In this document: piece by piece, positions 4,721 through 18,362 of the stretch
Position numbering within the stretch: the first letter of the stretch is position 1
Layout of the letters: each line of letters starts with the position of its first letter
Source: Escherichia phage phiWec188
DNA: 64,000 nt
Direction: 5' to 3' (one strand)
Sequence record: LC739537.1
The notes under the pieces: model-generated
Database searches by the model: none
Seen by the model: the letters and a program-made list of their open reading frames with translations, nothing else
What the model was told of the DNA's origin: nothing
Program-made: the position numbers and the translations under genes

Positions 4721-5158
4721 ATGTTGAACGTTCCTGTTAAATTCGTCGATAGCTGTGTTAATGCTTACCAACAAACTTGTAAACGTGCCTCAAACTGTTT
4801 GCAGTCTTTGATTCAAACGCGGTACGTGATCCAAAAGAAAAGAAAGTGGTTTGGTAAGGATTCTTATAGTGTTAATGCGTTCGGGGAGTATCAACTCCAG
4901 TATGACGATAACATGCAACACATCTTAGAGTTTTTACTGATAAAAGATAAAATCTCCCCTGCGGATTACCAGTTACTTAAATTCTACGATCAGAGTTTGT
5001 CTATTGAGGAAGTTATTCAAGATATCCTTTCTCGTAAGACAGATAAGAACACTGTTGGTATTACAAACTTAGAGATGCAATTGCTCAATGAGATCTTTTT
5101 GTTTGTGGAAGATGAGTCTGTAACTAAGGAGGAGCTTTTAAATGGCTTTAAGCTATGA
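4721..5158 (+). CDS. hypothetical protein
   Basis: 145 aa ORF; gaggag RBS upstream. Confidence 0.5.
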   Translation: MLNVPVKFVDSCVNAYQQTCKRASNCLQSLIQTRYVIQKKRKWFGKDSYSVNAFGEYQLQYDDNMQHILEFLLIKDKISPADYQLLKFYDQSLSIEEVIQDILSRKTDKNTVGITNLEMQLLNEIFLFVEDESVTKEELLNGFKL

Positions 5159-5650
5159 TCGTCCAGAGTCCGATTACTATCCGACTCCGCAAAAAGCGAT
5201 TAACTCGTTATTTAGCATTATTGATTTTAAAAATTTGAAAGAGGAAGGATTTACATTTGCAGAACCGTGTAGAGGACAAGCAGCGGCTATTTACCGTCAC
5301 TTTCCTGAAGGTTCTCAGTATTGTGAGCTTGAAGAAGGTAAAGATTATTTTAGTCACGTATGGGAAAATCGTCCCGACATTATAATCACGAATCCTCCAT
5401 TCAAGCTGGCATTAGAGTTCTTGGAAAAGAGCTTGAAAGAAGCAGACGTGTCAGTCTACCTGCTTCGCCTGGGATTCCTTGAGTCAAAGAAACGTCGAGC
5501 GTTTCATCAAGAAAACCCCCTACGAATTTGATTGTACTCTCCGAACGTCCTTCGTTCGTAGCAGGTGGAACAGATAAGACAGCGTATGCTTGGTACGTAT
5601 ACGATCCAAAACAAATTTTGGGTCTAACTCAACCATTTTATTTCGTTTAA
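5142..5650 (+). CDS. putative DNA N6-adenine methyltransferase, interrupted by an apparent -1 frameshift near 5512-5520
   Basis: YYPTP and IIITNPPF motifs; ORF stops at 5531 but the -1 frame continues (LIVLSERPSFVAGGTDKTAYAWYVYD) to stop at 5650; shift falls in an A4C5 run. Confidence 0.4.
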
Positions 5651-5660
5651 GGAGCACACT

Positions 5661-9883: not shown

Positions 9884-10102
9884 ATGAGTGATCGTAATGC
9901 ACAAGCATTAGCAGACAAAGCAAAAGCTATCATGTCCTTGGTAGATGAACTTACAAAAGAAGCAGAAAAGGAAGGTTTCGGTCTTAGCTTAGAAAACAAT
10001 GCAATCTGTTTTGAAGATTGGCAATCTTCTGCTTGCTACGGCGAAGCTGATGATGGTTTCACCGTTGACTCTGACGGTGTTTGGTACAGCAGTAATTGTT
10101 AA
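9884..10102 (+). CDS. hypothetical protein
   Basis: ORF 9863..10102; ATG 9884 preceded by aaggag. Confidence 0.5.
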   Translation: MSDRNAQALADKAKAIMSLVDELTKEAEKEGFGLSLENNAICFEDWQSSACYGEADDGFTVDSDGVWYSSNC

Positions 10103-10111
10103 GGAGGGATC

Positions 10112-10381
10112 ATGTCAGAAGGTATCGCCTTAATCAAGGCAAAAGTTAAAGAGATGGAAGCATCACAACAGAAGTTCCGCAACGAGATTGAAGAACTTTG
10201 TGAGCAGTTCCAAGAACAAGCGTGGATCGGTGATTACGGGAATGGGGAAACTTATTACCCAACAGGAACAAACGCAGAAGAACATTACCTCACCTATATC
10301 TGCGGAGATTATGATGTTGAGATTGACGAAAACGGTCTGATGACCCAAGGTCTTTGGGTGTCTTCCTCGGAAATGTGCTAA
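10112..10381 (+). CDS. hypothetical protein
   Basis: 89 aa ORF; aaggaggg RBS upstream. Confidence 0.5.
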   Translation: MSEGIALIKAKVKEMEASQQKFRNEIEELCEQFQEQAWIGDYGNGETYYPTGTNAEEHYLTYICGDYDVEIDENGLMTQGLWVSSSEMC

Positions 10382-10388
10382 TAAATAA

Positions 10389-10415
10389 TAACCCGCTTCG
10401 GCGGGTTTTTTATTG
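10389..10415 (+). terminator. intrinsic terminator
   Basis: acccgcTTCGgcgggt hairpin followed by tttttatt. Confidence 0.7.
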
Positions 10416-10423
10416 TGTGAGTG

Positions 10424-10452
10424 TTGACAAGACACGAAGAACCTGGTAGACT
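10424..10452 (+). promoter_or_regulatory. sigma70-like promoter candidate
   Basis: TTGACA, 17-bp spacer, TAGACT; immediately upstream of RBS and ATG 10481. Confidence 0.35.
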
Positions 10453-10480
10453 TGTCTCATCAACTAAGAGAGGAGGATAT

Positions 10481-11425
10481 ATGAAAGTATTAATCGGTAG
10501 TCGTGCGTTGGAAATGATTTGTCGTTCTCGTGGTGTAGAACTGTATCGTGCTTGCGTAGATCTGGATTACCTCTGCACTGAAGAAGAGTGGCAAGCAGAA
10601 GCCCAGAAATTCTCGAAAGATCGTTTCGTGGAAATTGTTGAACGTAAAGGTAACAAAGGGCATATCAAAATGATCGCGGGTGCTCATCTGGAATACGATA
10701 TTGCTCAACCAGGGGATTCTACAGAAGCATTGATCGAATATATTAAAGAGAATGCAGATCATCTGCCACATATTGGTTACGATGTGGTTGCACCTTTGGA
10801 TGTTTTGTATCTCCTGAAAATGAGTCACCGTTTTAAGAAGGACAGTCCTCACTTCCTGAAAACAATGAAGGATATCCACTTCATGCGCAACCTTGGAGCG
10901 AAGATCCCTGAAGAGTTGGAAGATACATACAAACTGCGTCAGAAGGAGTCCTATAATTACGGGCACCCTAATCTGAACGTGAAAAGTAAAGATTTCTTCA
11001 AGGGTGATGAAGTGCCTTATGTGTATGATCACGATACCATCCATGAAGCTGTTGCCGTGTTGGGTGATCCCGCTTATAAATCATACATGAAAGACGATAG
11101 CGAAGTGATGACCAGTAAAGAGAAGTTCTTTGCACAACCTAAACATATCCGTTTGCTGGGTGTTTACGAAGAAGCTTGTGTCCTGGCATTAGAGCGTTCA
11201 CAGATCCCGTTTGGGGAAGATGTAGATGGTCCAACTCCTAAACAAAGTTTTATGATGGCTTTATCCAAAGTTTGTACCTCGATCACCAGTGGATGGTTTC
11301 GTGAATATGCCTGGGAAAACTTCCAAGTTGTGGTAAAACTGTATGAGCAAATGGGCCAAGATGATTACGTGGCACGTTTTAAAGCAAATCTTCACATGGT
11401 GAAACCTTACGAAGGAGGTTATTGA
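10481..11425 (+). CDS. hypothetical protein
   Basis: ORF 10421..11425; ATG 10481 preceded by agaggagg; about 314 aa. Confidence 0.55.
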   Translation: MKVLIGSRALEMICRSRGVELYRACVDLDYLCTEEEWQAEAQKFSKDRFVEIVERKGNKGHIKMIAGAHLEYDIAQPGDSTEALIEYIKENADHLPHIGYDVVAPLDVLYLLKMSHRFKKDSPHFLKTMKDIHFMRNLGAKIPEELEDTYKLRQKESYNYGHPNLNVKSKDFFKGDEVPYVYDHDTIHEAVAVLGDPAYKSYMKDDSEVMTSKEKFFAQPKHIRLLGVYEEACVLALERSQIPFGEDVDGPTPKQSFMMALSKVCTSITSGWFREYAWENFQVVVKLYEQMGQDDYVARFKANLHMVKPYEGGY

Positions 11426-11426
11426 T

Positions 11427-11825
11427 ATGGGTTGGTGTGATCAGTCCCAAAGTTACTTCAAAGTAACACATGTGGATCTCAATAAAGCAAGAGTGAAGTT
11501 GTTGAGTATTGAAAAAGAAACAGCAGCTATTGACAAACGCCTCCGAGAGAGTAAAGTGGTAATCACTTCTTGGTTCGGACTGAAACGTAAAATCCTTACG
11601 CAGCGAGAGCATGTAATTAAAAATATGCATGGTTGGGCTTGGTTCCACGACATGGCAAAACACCTGGGGTACATTTCTACTGAAGAACACGACCTCTTGG
11701 AGCTACGTTATCGCCTTCCAGATGTAGAAGATTTAGACTTGTGGATCAGTTCCGAACAAATCTTCTTAACCGAGGGCGATTGGAAGAAAGTCAATATTTG
11801 TCTTAAATGGAGGGAGAATGAGTAA
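11427..11825 (+). CDS. hypothetical protein
   Basis: 132 aa ORF; gaaggagg RBS upstream. Confidence 0.5.
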   Translation: MGWCDQSQSYFKVTHVDLNKARVKLLSIEKETAAIDKRLRESKVVITSWFGLKRKILTQREHVIKNMHGWAWFHDMAKHLGYISTEEHDLLELRYRLPDVEDLDLWISSEQIFLTEGDWKKVNICLKWRENE

Positions 11826-12501
11826 AGTAGTTTTATCAACATTTGATGGATCTGGGATCATGGTACTTCGTTACGCAGAAGCAGGGCATAAATGCTACTG
11901 TGTAAATGCTGACGAAGGTGATCACGGGGCTTATGAAGTTCGCATGAAACATCCTAACATCACTTACGTGAACGCATGGATTGATTCCAACTTCAACCCT
12001 GAAGATTACGGTATTCCTAAGCCAGATATTATCTTTGGCTTCCCTCCATGTACCATGCTTGCTGGTTGCGGTAGTAAGCACGAACGTAGCGCAGAAGAAT
12101 TGGAAGAAGCTTTGGCTAACATTCGTATCGTGGAAGCTTTAGGAAATAAATACAACGTTCCGTGGATGATTGAGAATCCAGTGGGTAAACTGTCAACATT
12201 GTGGCGTAAACCGGATTTCTATTTCGATCCTTACGAATATGGCGGGTATCTGTTTGATGAAGAAGGCAGCTTCCACCCTAAAATGCCTACCCGCGACGGT
12301 TACACAAAGAAAACCTGTATTTGGCATGGCAATGGTTTTGTTAAGCCTGTGAAGAAGCCTGTGGAACATATTGGTTGCTTCTGGGGCTGGAAAAGTTTAG
12401 GCGGAGCAAGTGCGAAAACAAAACAACTCCGATCGTTAACTGCTCGCGGTTTTGCTCGTGCTGTGTTTTTATCTAACAACCTTTTAGATAAGGAGGAATG
12501 A
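11818..12501 (+). CDS. putative DNA (cytosine-5) methyltransferase-like protein, short
   Basis: Motif I-like FDGSG, motif IV-like GFPPCT (PC dipeptide), motif VI-like ENPVGKL; 227 aa, short for a complete C5-MTase. Confidence 0.4.
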   Translation: MSKVVLSTFDGSGIMVLRYAEAGHKCYCVNADEGDHGAYEVRMKHPNITYVNAWIDSNFNPEDYGIPKPDIIFGFPPCTMLAGCGSKHERSAEELEEALANIRIVEALGNKYNVPWMIENPVGKLSTLWRKPDFYFDPYEYGGYLFDEEGSFHPKMPTRDGYTKKTCIWHGNGFVKPVKKPVEHIGCFWGWKSLGGASAKTKQLRSLTARGFARAVFLSNNLLDKEE

Positions 12502-13166
12502 TGACCCATTTAAAACCTTTTGGTGGAAAACCTATTGTGGCGTATCAAGTAGATCGTGATGATTGGGAAGGCAGTGTAGTTGTCTTTGGTAATCATTTCT
12601 TTGCTGTGCGTCGTAAAGGCGCAAGTATGTTGGATTGTGAGGAGGAGTATTGTCATGTCTCCCGCGCCAAAGAATTCGACCAGTATGCAGAAAAAGGTTT
12701 TGTGCCTGTCAAAGCTTTACTGGAGGCAGGATGGTGGATACACTCTGCTCATGATGGTGTTAGACTTGACGAGTCTGTAGATAATCTTGAGGCAGATTTT
12801 GACGAATGGGAAGATGGCATGTATATTGAGGAGGATCTTGTATTTTCCCTTGACGAGAAAAGTGTGTGGAAGAACTGGGAAGAAATGGAACGTCACGCGC
12901 ATTTTATCAACAACGCTTTGATTCGTAAAGCCTGGTTCACAGAGGCGGTGAAGGTAGCGTATCCGCAATTCACCTTTACGGAGGTTTGGGGCGGTCCACA
13001 CCACATCACCCATACAGCATTTTTCGACTTCCCTGGTTCACGTTACAAAGGTAATGTAATGTGGGACTGGGATGAGAATGAAGTACCATCTGTTCAAGAC
13101 TTTCGTTGTTATGTTTGCCAAGGCGATCAAGAAGCCCTTGACAAATACCTGCAAAGTCTGGTATAG
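12498..13166 (+). CDS. hypothetical protein
   Basis: 222 aa ORF; ATGA overlap with upstream gene. Confidence 0.5.
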   Translation: MMTHLKPFGGKPIVAYQVDRDDWEGSVVVFGNHFFAVRRKGASMLDCEEEYCHVSRAKEFDQYAEKGFVPVKALLEAGWWIHSAHDGVRLDESVDNLEADFDEWEDGMYIEEDLVFSLDEKSVWKNWEEMERHAHFINNALIRKAWFTEAVKVAYPQFTFTEVWGGPHHITHTAFFDFPGSRYKGNVMWDWDENEVPSVQDFRCYVCQGDQEALDKYLQSLV

Positions 13167-13179
13167 TGCAAGCAACTGA

Positions 13180-13212
13180 ACAAAGCCTCCTTTTCAGGGG
13201 GCTTTTCTTTTA
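13180..13212 (+). terminator. intrinsic terminator
   Basis: agcctccTTTTCAgggggctt hairpin followed by ttcttttat. Confidence 0.55.
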
Positions 13213-13224
13213 TGAGGAGGGAAT

Positions 13225-13719
13225 ATGTTTCAAGTAGAAATCCATGTGCACAACAGTTGTTCAAATTGCGAAACTTGTGGTTACAATAGTTCAACCATGA
13301 TCACTATTAGCGGAGACTTAGGACATGCCAAGTTTGGCGAAGTCGCAAGCTGCTTCAGCGGAGAGGATGCAGATTGGCATGATATTGCTTTGTGGCTATG
13401 CGGAAGACTGAATGTAAATTGTAAAGACTTCCCTGAACTGTTGAGCCGAAATCTTGTCGATAGTCGGGAACAAGCCTACAATATTTATGCCGCTTCTGTT
13501 TATGTTGATCATAAATGGGTAGAAGATGAAGAAGCTGAACGTTTGCTACGCCTCTACTATGAAGCAGAGGAAGCTTATGATAACTATTACAGCATGTCCA
13601 ACATCCTGCGTTTGTTTGCAGAGTTTGATATTTACTTTGAAGTGAGTTATTCTGAAGATGAAGTGTATGATTTTGATGACGATGATTACGAGGAGGATGA
13701 AGAATGCCAAGACGATTAA
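13225..13719 (+). CDS. hypothetical protein with Cys-rich N-terminus and acidic C-terminus
   Basis: 164 aa; gaggagg RBS; CSNCETCG motif; C-terminus DFDDDDYEEDEECQDD. Confidence 0.5.
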   Translation: MFQVEIHVHNSCSNCETCGYNSSTMITISGDLGHAKFGEVASCFSGEDADWHDIALWLCGRLNVNCKDFPELLSRNLVDSREQAYNIYAASVYVDHKWVEDEEAERLLRLYYEAEEAYDNYYSMSNILRLFAEFDIYFEVSYSEDEVYDFDDDDYEEDEECQDD

Positions 13720-14507
13720 TAGTGATCAGCGGCGCTGGTCTAAGCGCCGATAGCGGTGTACAAACATTCCGTACAGAAACAGAGAGTGGAAAAGCATTAT
13801 GGGACGAGTACGATTTAGAGGAGGTTTGTAATATTGGGGCATTCCAGGCAGGTTATCGTAGACGTACATGTCCCGATTTACCTGTTATCGGAGGTGAGGA
13901 TGAGGAAGGATACAACCTCTACAACAAGACCCATGATTTCTATAACAAGCGTCGTATAGAGTTGGATAATATAGATCCAAACGCTGCACATCGTCTGATT
14001 GCTCGTTTATACTCAGAGTATGGCGCTGATCGTATTTTAAACATTACCACTAACGTAGACGATCTTTTGGAACGTGCTGGTGTTGTTCACGAAGATGTTC
14101 TGCATGTGCATGGCTACCTACCAGAAATTGTAGTGGATCGGAAGTTTATTAAAGAAATCGGTTATGCAAGTGTGGATGTGGATAAGTACGATTACGTGAA
14201 ACCTAACGTTGTCTTCTTCGGGGAATCTGCTCCGCTGTACACAGAGATGTACCATATGCTCGATAATCTCACATCTCAGGATATGGTGATTGTTGTAGGT
14301 TGCTCTAATCAAGTGATCAACTTCAACTGGGAGTTGTTCCCAGCCCTCAATACAGGAACAAAGATGGTCGTAGTTAATCCTGGGGTTAATTACGAAGAAA
14401 CACTTCTCTATGAAGATCGTGGAGTTTTTGTTTACCGAGAAAAAGCTGCAACAGCCTTCAGTAATGAAGGTTTCATTAAAATGATCGAAGACCACTTAAA
14501 CAAATAA
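13704..14507 (+). CDS. Sir2-family NAD-dependent protein deacylase/ADP-ribosyltransferase homolog
   Basis: Sirtuin motifs GAGLSADSGVQTFR, catalytic HG (VLHVHGY), VVFFGE; 267 aa. Confidence 0.8.
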   Translation: MPRRLIVISGAGLSADSGVQTFRTETESGKALWDEYDLEEVCNIGAFQAGYRRRTCPDLPVIGGEDEEGYNLYNKTHDFYNKRRIELDNIDPNAAHRLIARLYSEYGADRILNITTNVDDLLERAGVVHEDVLHVHGYLPEIVVDRKFIKEIGYASVDVDKYDYVKPNVVFFGESAPLYTEMYHMLDNLTSQDMVIVVGCSNQVINFNWELFPALNTGTKMVVVNPGVNYEETLLYEDRGVFVYREKAATAFSNEGFIKMIEDHLNK

Positions 14508-14512
14508 ACCAA

Positions 14513-14540
14513 CCAAGGGGCTACGGCCCCTTTCTTATTA
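14513..14540 (+). terminator. intrinsic terminator
   Basis: aaggggcTACggcccctt hairpin followed by tcttatt. Confidence 0.65.
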
Positions 14541-14550
14541 GGAGATTACT

Positions 14551-14823
14551 ATGCAACAAGAAACTTTCGATTTTTATCTCGCCAATTATGTCTACTACTT
14601 CTCTAATGGTACACAGAAAGGGGAAGGCAATCTTTACTTGGCTACCAACACTGGAGCAGGTGTTCGTAAAGCCAATATTGATTTAGCAAGAGAAACAGTT
14701 CGTTCTGGACTGGAAGAGACGCTTGAAACTCCAGTTGTTGTGGTTATACAAACTATCAGTTACCTTGCAACCTGTACTAAAGAGGATTTTGAGGCTCCTC
14801 AAACGCAATCTAACGAAGCATAA
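14551..14823 (+). CDS. hypothetical protein
   Basis: 90 aa ORF; aggag RBS upstream. Confidence 0.5.
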   Translation: MQQETFDFYLANYVYYFSNGTQKGEGNLYLATNTGAGVRKANIDLARETVRSGLEETLETPVVVVIQTISYLATCTKEDFEAPQTQSNEA

Positions 14824-17484: not shown

Positions 17485-17726
17485 TCTCCTATAAGCTGGG
17501 GATTCAAGGCGAATTGTGACATACGTTCAGTGGGAGAGTATAAGTACGGAGGTGTAATTTGCTCCAACACCTTAGCTGCACGTACCTCATCTTCCACTCC
17601 AATATGAAGCCCACGCTCCATAGTTAATACACCATGATCGTTAAGAAGGAATAGAGATTCTACCCCATCCACCTTATCAATTGCAACATAAAGTTTAGTC
17701 ATATTGTCTCCGTTACCATTCGGCAA
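17475..17726 (-). CDS. hypothetical protein
   Basis: 83 aa ORF. Confidence 0.45.
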   Translation of the reverse strand: MPNGNGDNMTKLYVAIDKVDGVESLFLLNDHGVLTMERGLHIGVEDEVRAAKVLEQITPPYLYSPTERMSQFALNPQLIGEWE

Positions 17727-18018
17727 TCAGTTGAGGTTTGACAGCAAAAGCTTGAAAGGTAGTAATATCGTAAAGAAAAACATTATCCAATTCCTTAAGT
17801 TTAGCCGTCATGCCAGCTTTAGTTTCTCCGTCCCACGGGAAGATAGCAACACCATGTTCCCCGACCAACCACCAGTGATAATTGCCGTCACGAAGATCTT
17901 TTGCTTTATAAAGATAATTAGTAATCATTGCCACATTTCTCCCATCTTTGCATCGCCTGTAACCAGCCCTCGGCTCTTTCCCTGGTTTCGAAGTAGACAG
18001 GAATACCCGTCCCTGCAA
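17713..18018 (-). CDS. hypothetical protein
   Basis: 101 aa ORF. Confidence 0.45.
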   Translation of the reverse strand: MQGRVFLSTSKPGKEPRAGYRRCKDGRNVAMITNYLYKAKDLRDGNYHWWLVGEHGVAIFPWDGETKAGMTAKLKELDNVFLYDITTFQAFAVKPQLIAEW

Positions 18019-18119
18019 ATGTGACCCACCAAGTGAAGATCCACCAACCTGTTTTTATGCGATATCCTGTTTCATATTCGACCACTTTCATGAGTCACCT
18101 TTAAAATCGTCTCACTATA

Positions 18120-18362
18120 TCATTTACTATGTGCGTCTGTCAAGTTTTTCTTAGGGAAGAAGAGATCGCAATGATGGATGTAGAAGAGTTCCACCAAAGC
18201 TGCCTCCCTGTACGACAAACACTGCTCATACAATTGTTGTTCTTTATCTGCCGTCATGTTGTTAAGTCTTATCGCTCCGAAGAACACCAAGAGGAAAATA
18301 CAGAATGCAACTATGACTGCTTGTAACCATTCTTTCACGATGTAACTCCAAAGTTTAGACAT
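18120..18362 (-). CDS. small membrane protein
   Basis: 80 aa ORF with hydrophobic segment AVIVAFCIFLLVFFGAI; aggag RBS. Confidence 0.45.
   Translation of the reverse strand: MSKLWSYIVKEWLQAVIVAFCIFLLVFFGAIRLNNMTADKEQQLYEQCLSYREAALVELFYIHHCDLFFPKKNLTDAHSK

Follow-up and report, generated by a model that had tools for sequence, protein, structure and literature searches.

The protein considered here is an unusually short candidate for a DNA cytosine-C5 methyltransferase, of 227 amino acids (aa). The locus, at 11818..12501 on the + strand of a 64,000-nucleotide (nt) stretch of Escherichia phage phiWec188 (sequence record LC739537.1, hereafter the window), is an open reading frame (ORF) with an ATG start, and its orthologue in phage phAPEC8 is gp194. 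The original prediction, made from the letters of the window, had noted three methyltransferase motifs in this ORF, had judged it too short to hold a normal target-recognition domain, and had read it as possibly a minimal methyltransferase or a related pyrimidine-modifying enzyme which, with other genes of the window, hinted that the phage modifies its DNA. As set out below, the gene product is very probably an orphan, phage-borne, S-adenosylmethionine (SAM)-dependent DNA cytosine-C5 methyltransferase that is unaccompanied by a restriction enzyme and falls in PHROG 757, a family of short 'Dcm-like' proteins.

The evidence begins with homology. The 227-aa protein matches the PHROG 757 'DNA methyltransferase' profile over its full length (E 1.1e-82), with aa 1-223 placed on positions 13-221 of the 247 in the profile. 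Homologues were detected by tblastn in 1,489 phage records, spread over the Drexlerviridae (T1-like phages, Webervirus included), Dhillonvirus, Vequintavirus, phAPEC8-like phages and others, while a search of 5.8 billion proteins returned 807 homologues, and an exhaustive profile search of 1.84 billion representatives returned 1,797 representative clusters at 50% identity and E<=0.001. Given the full-length PHROG 757 match, the 807 homologues and the 1,797 clusters, 11818-12501 is not a chance ORF. Almost every full-length relative is 200-260 aa in length, a range that includes the query, and shortness is a fixed trait of the PHROG 757 family and no truncation.

The motifs of the original prediction all lie where it had put them, and their conservation was assessed among 65 representatives that are 31-58% identical to the query, with a separate close clade of 31 sequences. 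Motif I, the SAM-binding glycine loop, reads FDGSG (aa 9-13, 11842..11856, on the + strand as are all the segments described here); F9, D10 and G13 are mostly kept, and G11 varies in distant relatives. Motif IV, GFPPCT (aa 74-79, 12037..12054), holds the catalytic nucleophile Cys78, which is present in 65/65 representatives, with P76 and T79 nearly invariant beside it; the aligned segment is PPCQ in M.HaeIII and FPCQ in E. coli Dcm. Motif VI, ENPVGKL (aa 119-125, 12172..12192), is of the ENV type with an inserted proline; its ENPV (aa 119-122) falls on the ENV of both M.HaeIII and E. coli Dcm, no representative departs at E119 or P121, and 62/65 keep N120. In the alignments to M.HaeIII and E. 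coli Dcm, the PPC/PC and ENV elements are in register with the query, and hhalign puts FPPCT on FPCQ and IENP on LENV of E. coli Dcm. Further downstream are a motif VIII-like segment, YTKKTCIW (aa 162-169, 12301..12324), in which Y162 and W169 are invariant and K164 and T166 nearly so, and the motif IX/X-like C-terminal helices, TKQLRSLTARGFARAVF (aa 201-217, 12418..12468), in which R205, S206, P209 (Ala here), G211 and A215 are nearly invariant. The last helix begins R210-G211-F212-A213, with no Asn, and seems to have no counterpart of the Gly-Asn of motif X; Arg210, which may stand opposite Asn304, lies beyond the hhalign alignment, as this stops short of the C-terminus.

Eight residues are invariant in the 65 representatives (C78, G85, E119, P121, P138, Y162, W169 and P177), all of which are present in the query, and a further group is nearly invariant (F75, P76, T79, N120, K164, T166, R205, S206, P209, G211 and A215). 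The immediate context of the catalytic cysteine, on which the original prediction had been staked, is maintained in the homologues: Cys78 is invariant in all 65, and the constant family pattern around it is F-P-x-C-T, so the prediction stands on this point. One caveat to the motif IV reading is that the close clade does not keep the proline of 'PC'. The residue before Cys78 is Pro in the query and in 51/65 distant relatives, and is Asp in 15, Pro in 8, Ser in 7 and Gln in 1 of the 31 close relatives.

As to the absent domain, no separate target-recognition (small) domain was found between motifs VIII and IX, where about 30 residues lead to the C-terminal helices. The segment at the position of the target-recognition domain (aa 171-200, 12328..12417) varies from 23 to 43 residues in relatives, and sequence variation within the family is greatest in its core, aa 183-193. 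With 60 residues in all after motif VIII, the protein is indeed too short for a target-recognition domain of the usual kind.

The fold search gives the 227-aa protein the catalytic-domain fold of C5-methyltransferases, with DNMT3 (DNMT3A/B) as its closest structural match. The relationship to C5-methyltransferases cannot be proven from sequence alone, and it is the fold search, on the predicted structure, that proves it. The core of the prediction, a minimal methyltransferase, is supported in this way by homology, fold and catalytic-residue conservation, all three of which were observed here. Support from the canonical profile is weak, the hit to PF00145 (E 0.22) falling below the cut-off.

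An experimental anchor is provided by phage K42, a KarlJaspers-like member of the Drexlerviridae, in which a 711-bp 'Dcm-like' gene is both the escape locus and the trigger of retron Ec86 (bioRxiv 10.1101/2023.08.16.553469). In that study, which according to a reference list was published by Wang et al. as Cell Rep 2024 43:114857, 4/4 Ec86 escapers of K42 carried lesions in this gene, and expression of K42 Dcm was toxic only together with retron Ec86 (bioRxiv 10.1101/2023.08.16.553469). The 236-aa K42 protein raised 5-methylcytosine (5mC) in vivo on the multicopy single-stranded DNA (msDNA) of Ec86, as measured by liquid chromatography-mass spectrometry, whereas a C82A/E128A/K175A/K176A mutant, the four residues being tested only in this combined quadruple form, was inert and gave no 5mC rise (bioRxiv 10.1101/2023.08.16.553469). 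As a sequence proxy for K42 Dcm we used the phage tuinn homologue, tuinn_35, which when read from Met22 has 236 aa with C82, E128, K175 and K176 exactly as reported for the K42 enzyme. This proxy is 50% identical to the query over its full length (E 7e-71), and C82, E128, K175 and K176 correspond to C78, E119, K164 and K165 of the query. Because K42 Dcm forms 5mC and its proxy matches the query at this level, the PHROG 757 family has already been shown to hold an active 5mC-forming DNA methyltransferase.

From these observations we infer an activity, a target, a biological role and any oligomerisation of the 227-aa protein. In essence, the protein would consist of the Rossmann-type catalytic domain of such an enzyme, with motifs I-III predicted to hold SAM. 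Cys78 of motif IV would attack C6 of a flipped-out cytosine, and Glu119 of motif VI would protonate N3, with the methyl group passing to C5. Here, the loop of about 30 residues at aa 171-200 would stand in for the large target-recognition domain, and recognition of DNA would be achieved by this loop in conjunction with the catalytic loop, possibly aided by oligomerisation as in DNMT3. During infection the phage DNA would most likely be methylated, and host DNA incidentally, with CCWGG, or else some other short site, as the probable target; restriction would be blunted in consequence. Defences of the retron Ec86 type may incidentally sense such methyltransferase activity.

A number of observations weigh against this assignment, or against parts of it. 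The match to the canonical C5-methyltransferase family PF00145 scores 11.4 bits against a cut-off of 22, with alignment limited to aa 5-95, and just 1/31 close relatives and 1/65 distant relatives reach E<0.01 to the same profile. A NCBIfam search of the 227-aa protein gave no match, and the PDB sequence and profile searches (phmmer, and hmmsearch with two family profiles) gave non-significant E values of about 0.2-0.5, with M.HaeIII or Dnmt2 at 0.3-0.5. In the case of E. coli Dcm, hhalign against its profile returned a probability of 1.3%, confined to the stretch from motif IV to motif VI, and about 1.5% when the comparison was tried with a single sequence and with a 12-sequence profile; the E. 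coli Dcm profile is too shallow, the homologue search having given only relatives at least 74% identical. The motifs themselves depart from the canonical forms, with ENP in place of ENV in motif VI, and with YxKxT in place of the canonical QxRxR in motif VIII, leaving a basic residue at one of the two Arg positions. Of the 16 positions that are nearly invariant in its own family, all but K92 checked, the query also departs at three: Thr8 replaces the Leu of 61/65 representatives, Asn30 in motif II replaces the Asp of distant relatives, and Ala209 replaces the Pro of 62/65. Lastly, the recognition loop at aa 183-193 is EHIGCFWGWKS in the query as opposed to KEEDKDNPGWAKT in the K42 type, and specificity may therefore not transfer from the one to the other.

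The remaining points of this kind concern the target. The assignment of CCWGG to K42 Dcm rests on the name 'Dcm' and on msDNA CCTGG mutants that lose defence; such mutations could act via effector contacts, and the experiments used MG1655, which is dcm+. An indirect hint of CCWGG comes from Klebsiella phage KP36, whose gp74 (17553-18245) is a 59%-identical homologue of the query. KP36 DNA, with 155 EcoRII sites, is uncut by EcoRII, and its authors reported in 2013 no cytosine methyltransferase in KP36 and credited the resistance to host Dcm (PMC3620542). The presence of gp74 may offer an alternative explanation, although host Dcm can account for the resistance as well. A search of the literature for base-resolution methylome data on these phages found none. 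Overall, the odds that CCWGG is the target of the 227-aa enzyme appear to us roughly even.

Site frequencies in the window are a further indirect hint of CCWGG, and are suggestive only as far as specificity is concerned. Palindromes are broadly avoided, the least avoided being CCWGG (127 observed, 113 expected) and GATC (417 observed, 372 expected), with a ratio of 1.12 each. CCSGG occurs at a single site (48722) against 16.5 expected, and GGATCC, CTGCAG, CACGTG, TCCGGA and GGCGCC are each absent where 9-13 of each were expected; observed-to-expected ratios are 0.31 for GGCC, 0.49 for GTAC, 0.50 for CCGG and 0.22 for CTSAG. The most extreme case is CTAG, which does not occur in the 64 kb at all, against a Markov expectation of 112 and a mean of 180 (standard deviation 12) in 100 dinucleotide shuffles. 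Nor does CTAG occur in the 66 kb of the near-identical phage PsgM04F, whereas 31 copies were counted over 28.5 kb of phAPEC8; it looks as if this one site had been eliminated altogether in a single lineage. With respect to restriction of methylated DNA by the host, CmCWGG is not a site of the RmC type (a purine followed by methylcytosine), and frequent RmC methylation would yield a substrate for McrBC. Phages bearing orthologues have been isolated or grown on MG1655, which is mcrBC+, and their growth on this host therefore fits methylation in the form CmCWGG.

The local arrangement of the gene is that of an operon. A strong ribosome-binding site, GGAGGGAG, read from the sequence, lies directly 5' of the methyltransferase ATG (11809..11816, + strand). 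The start of the gene shares 8 nt with the end of the upstream ORF (11427-11825), and its stop overlaps the start of a downstream 222-aa ORF in the arrangement ATGA; because of these overlaps the methyltransferase gene is embedded in an operon. On the same strand, consensus scans identified a terminator-like hairpin at 10390-10407 and a promoter-like site, TTGACA-17-TAGACT with TG, at 10424-10452, which together are likely to form the 5' boundary of a four-gene unit, and a second terminator-like hairpin at 13182..13205 that would close it. From the overlapping ORFs and these scan hits, the methyltransferase is therefore the probable third gene of a unit spanning 10481-13166. The first gene of the unit (10481-11425, + strand) encodes a 314-aa DUF7277+DUF7275 protein (domain match E 1.7e-76) of unknown function that is kept across phAPEC8-like phages, and the second (11427-11825, + strand) a 132-aa PHROG 16551 protein, also of unknown function. 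The fourth (12498..13166, + strand) encodes a 222-aa PHROG 8514 protein confined to phAPEC8-like phages, for which the structural model gives no significant match and no known fold. Two genes downstream of the methyltransferase, at 13704-14507, is a gene of the Sir2 family (NAD-dependent deacylase-like; PF02146 E 7e-21; PHROG 2162).

Beyond this unit, neighbours of the methyltransferase vary between phage families, and the bacterial copies examined, from Serratia and Bdellovibrio, lie within the replication modules of prophages, where no nuclease was seen close by. The gene is an orphan stand-alone module on these grounds, and no nuclease partner was seen in any phage or prophage context examined.

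The larger block that the original prediction had assembled from two methyltransferase candidates and the deoxythymidine diphosphate (dTDP)-sugar genes found no support. Its second candidate, an adenine-methyltransferase-like gene with an NPPF motif (PHROG 799, 5142-5651), encodes 169 aa in phAPEC8 gp177 and in PsgM04F. In the window it is frameshifted by a 1-nt deletion near 5519 (AAAACCC-CCT versus AAAACCCACCT), the stretch being 601 nt here and 602 nt in PsgM04F, phAPEC8 and the phiWec190 record (LC739539.1), and the ORF ends at 5531 after 129 aa instead of 169. The window and LC739539.1 are thus not identical letter for letter, and either the deletion is a genuine variant or the sequence contains an error. 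Genes of the dTDP-rhamnose pathway occupy 26-1739, namely the final part of an RmlA-like gene, then RmlC (340-900) and an RmlD-like gene (897-1739); their presence in phapecoctaviruses is on record, without an explanation (PMC7552041). These genes are real and nothing links them to the methyltransferase gene, which lies 10 kb away. No glycosyltransferase is annotated near them, and a hypermodification block was rejected, with no glycosyltransferase, TET or hydroxymethylase annotated in the near-identical 66-kb region of PsgM04F. The methyltransferase family, for its part, occurs in many phage families among unrelated neighbours.

How the enzyme chooses its site is the point on which the alternatives carry the most weight. 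The protein may be an active DNA C5-methyltransferase with a target other than CCWGG, reading a site of very few bases or of relaxed sequence (CpG, GpC, CC or similar) by means of a DNMT3-style minimal loop, a reading that we consider rather unlikely while taking it seriously. It is favoured by the comparison with E. coli Dcm, which is non-significant and extends to the catalytic motifs only, by the lack in the query of the Dcm N-terminal PF18284 and recognition domain, and by a recognition loop of about 30 residues that differs between subfamilies; moreover, msDNA 5mC is low in dcm+ MG1655 lacking the K42 enzyme, which would not be expected of two enzymes with the same site. Yet frequent RmC methylation would presumably have exposed the orthologue-bearing phages to McrBC of the strain on which they were isolated, CCWGG is unavoided in the window while CCSGG, CCGG and GGCC are avoided, KP36 DNA resists EcoRII, and the msDNA CCTGG mutants no longer trigger. 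In a bolder and doubtful form of this idea, no natural DNA C5-methyltransferase able to act by itself would be smaller than this family: the enzyme would be a catalytic domain and nothing more, and the loop of about 30 residues, perhaps helped by oligomerisation as in DNMT3, would give it a non-Dcm specificity, which could be relaxed or of 2-3 bases and could vary between clades with aa 183-193. Were this so, the 'Dcm-like/CCWGG' label now spreading in phage annotation and in the retron literature would be wrong for many members, the query included. In a rarer version still, the conserved Arg210 could let some members use carboxy-S-adenosylmethionine (Cx-SAM).

Other explanations depart further from a self-sufficient DNA methyltransferase. 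The group transferred may not be methyl at all, for instance carboxymethyl from Cx-SAM as in CmoX, or 5mC may be the first step of a hypermodification, for instance via the dTDP-rhamnose pathway. The structural match to CmoX and the conserved Arg210 point in this direction; against it, DNMT3A/B, which are true methyltransferases and the best structural matches, also carry Arg at what is presumably the Arg210 position (GRSW). Such chemistry is highly improbable in our estimation, for K42 Dcm made 5mC in E. coli, a host that bears CmoA, and the 66 kb of PsgM04F have none of cmoA, a CmoY-like ligase, TET/JBP, a hydroxymethylase or a glycosyltransferase annotated, while the rml genes belong to another transcription unit and most phages with a methyltransferase of this family have no rml genes. 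It is also very unlikely that the protein is no DNA enzyme, whether a Dnmt2-type RNA or tRNA m5C methyltransferase or a dead DNA- or SAM-binding protein acting, for instance, in anti-defence or SAM sequestration. Two-polypeptide C5-methyltransferases do exist, as exemplified by M.AquI and M.EcoHK31I, and the 227-aa protein may in principle be one half of a split enzyme, with a neighbour such as the 222-aa ORF at 12498-13166 supplying a recognition domain in trans. The ATGA overlap and the methyltransferase's want of a recognition domain are suggestive of such an arrangement, but the idea was rejected as extremely improbable: the 222-aa family comprises 22 clusters, in related phages only, the model of the 222-aa protein has no significant structural match, and K42 Dcm works alone. 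The downstream gene is not a conserved partner of the methyltransferase.

On the preferred reading, an orphan DNA cytosine-C5 methyltransferase of PHROG 757, the gene is an orthologue within a phage family that is abundant and has been annotated before, and of which one member has been characterised by experiment. By megablast, phiWec190 (LC739539.1) is 100% identical over 10000-14600, and the window is 96% identical to 'Pseudomonas' phage PsgM04F and ~77% identical to phAPEC8. Phage phiWec190, with 42% GC, is placed in a genus newly proposed within the Stephanstirmvirinae, and the paper describing the phiWec phages makes no mention of methyltransferases (PMC12695924). The phiWec190 record labels the gene 'hypothetical protein', and orthologues that are 93-99.6% identical are labelled 'DNA methyltransferase', 'Dcm' or 'site-specific DNA methylase' in phAPEC8 (gp194), PsgM04F and dozens more records. 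Three records with methyltransferases 93-99.6% identical to the query, OR584014.1 (Pseudomonas phage PsgM04F), MG065650.1 (Campylobacter phage B15) and OP562383.1 (Acinetobacter phage vB_AbaM_ABPW7), are phAPEC8/phiWec-type coliphage genomes, and their host labels look doubtful.

The gene is in this sense one more example of a very abundant family, with members in some 1,500 sequenced phages and some 1,800 sequence clusters, which is poorly characterised, being without a solved structure, Pfam coverage or base-resolution specificity. The enzyme probably helps coliphages that are therapeutic candidates to escape restriction. As activity of this kind is a known trigger of retron Ec86, the presence of the enzyme may also predict sensitivity to Ec86.

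Comparison with known methyltransferases places the protein between several types. Relative to the canonical enzymes M.HhaI and M.HaeIII (PF00145), the query is about 100 residues shorter, is missing the small (target-recognition) domain and falls below the Pfam threshold; the canonical enzymes have Gln after the catalytic Cys, ENV and QxRxR, whereas the query has Thr, ENP and YxKxT. The spacing of motifs I-VIII in M.HhaI is almost equal to that in the query, with Cys81 and Glu119 there (M.HhaI numbering from the literature) equivalent to Cys78 and Glu119 here, and the difference lies after motif VIII, where M.HhaI has about 160 residues and the query 60. E. coli Dcm and M.EcoRII possibly have the same CCWGG target as the query, hence the names 'Dcm' and 'Dcm-like' in GenBank and BASEL. 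E. coli Dcm itself is a protein of 472 aa with an N-terminal PF18284, which was not found in the query, a large recognition domain and a partner gene, vsr; the name 'Dcm' on the phage genes is a statement of presumed function, not of ancestry. The phage DNA cytosine C5-carboxymethyltransferase CmoX (PDB 8yf3) has about 333 aa and an SPPC motif and lies beside cmoA and cmoY, none of which applies to the query. The catalytic domains of DNMT3A and DNMT3B are 14-18% identical to the query, and in DNMT3, which acts as a tetramer with regulatory domains, the recognition loop region runs to about 50 residues, in contrast to the loop of about 30 residues in the query. The enzyme of phage K42 is found in another phage family and in another genomic context, and shares with the query its PHROG 757 membership, short architecture, invariant residues and orphan status.

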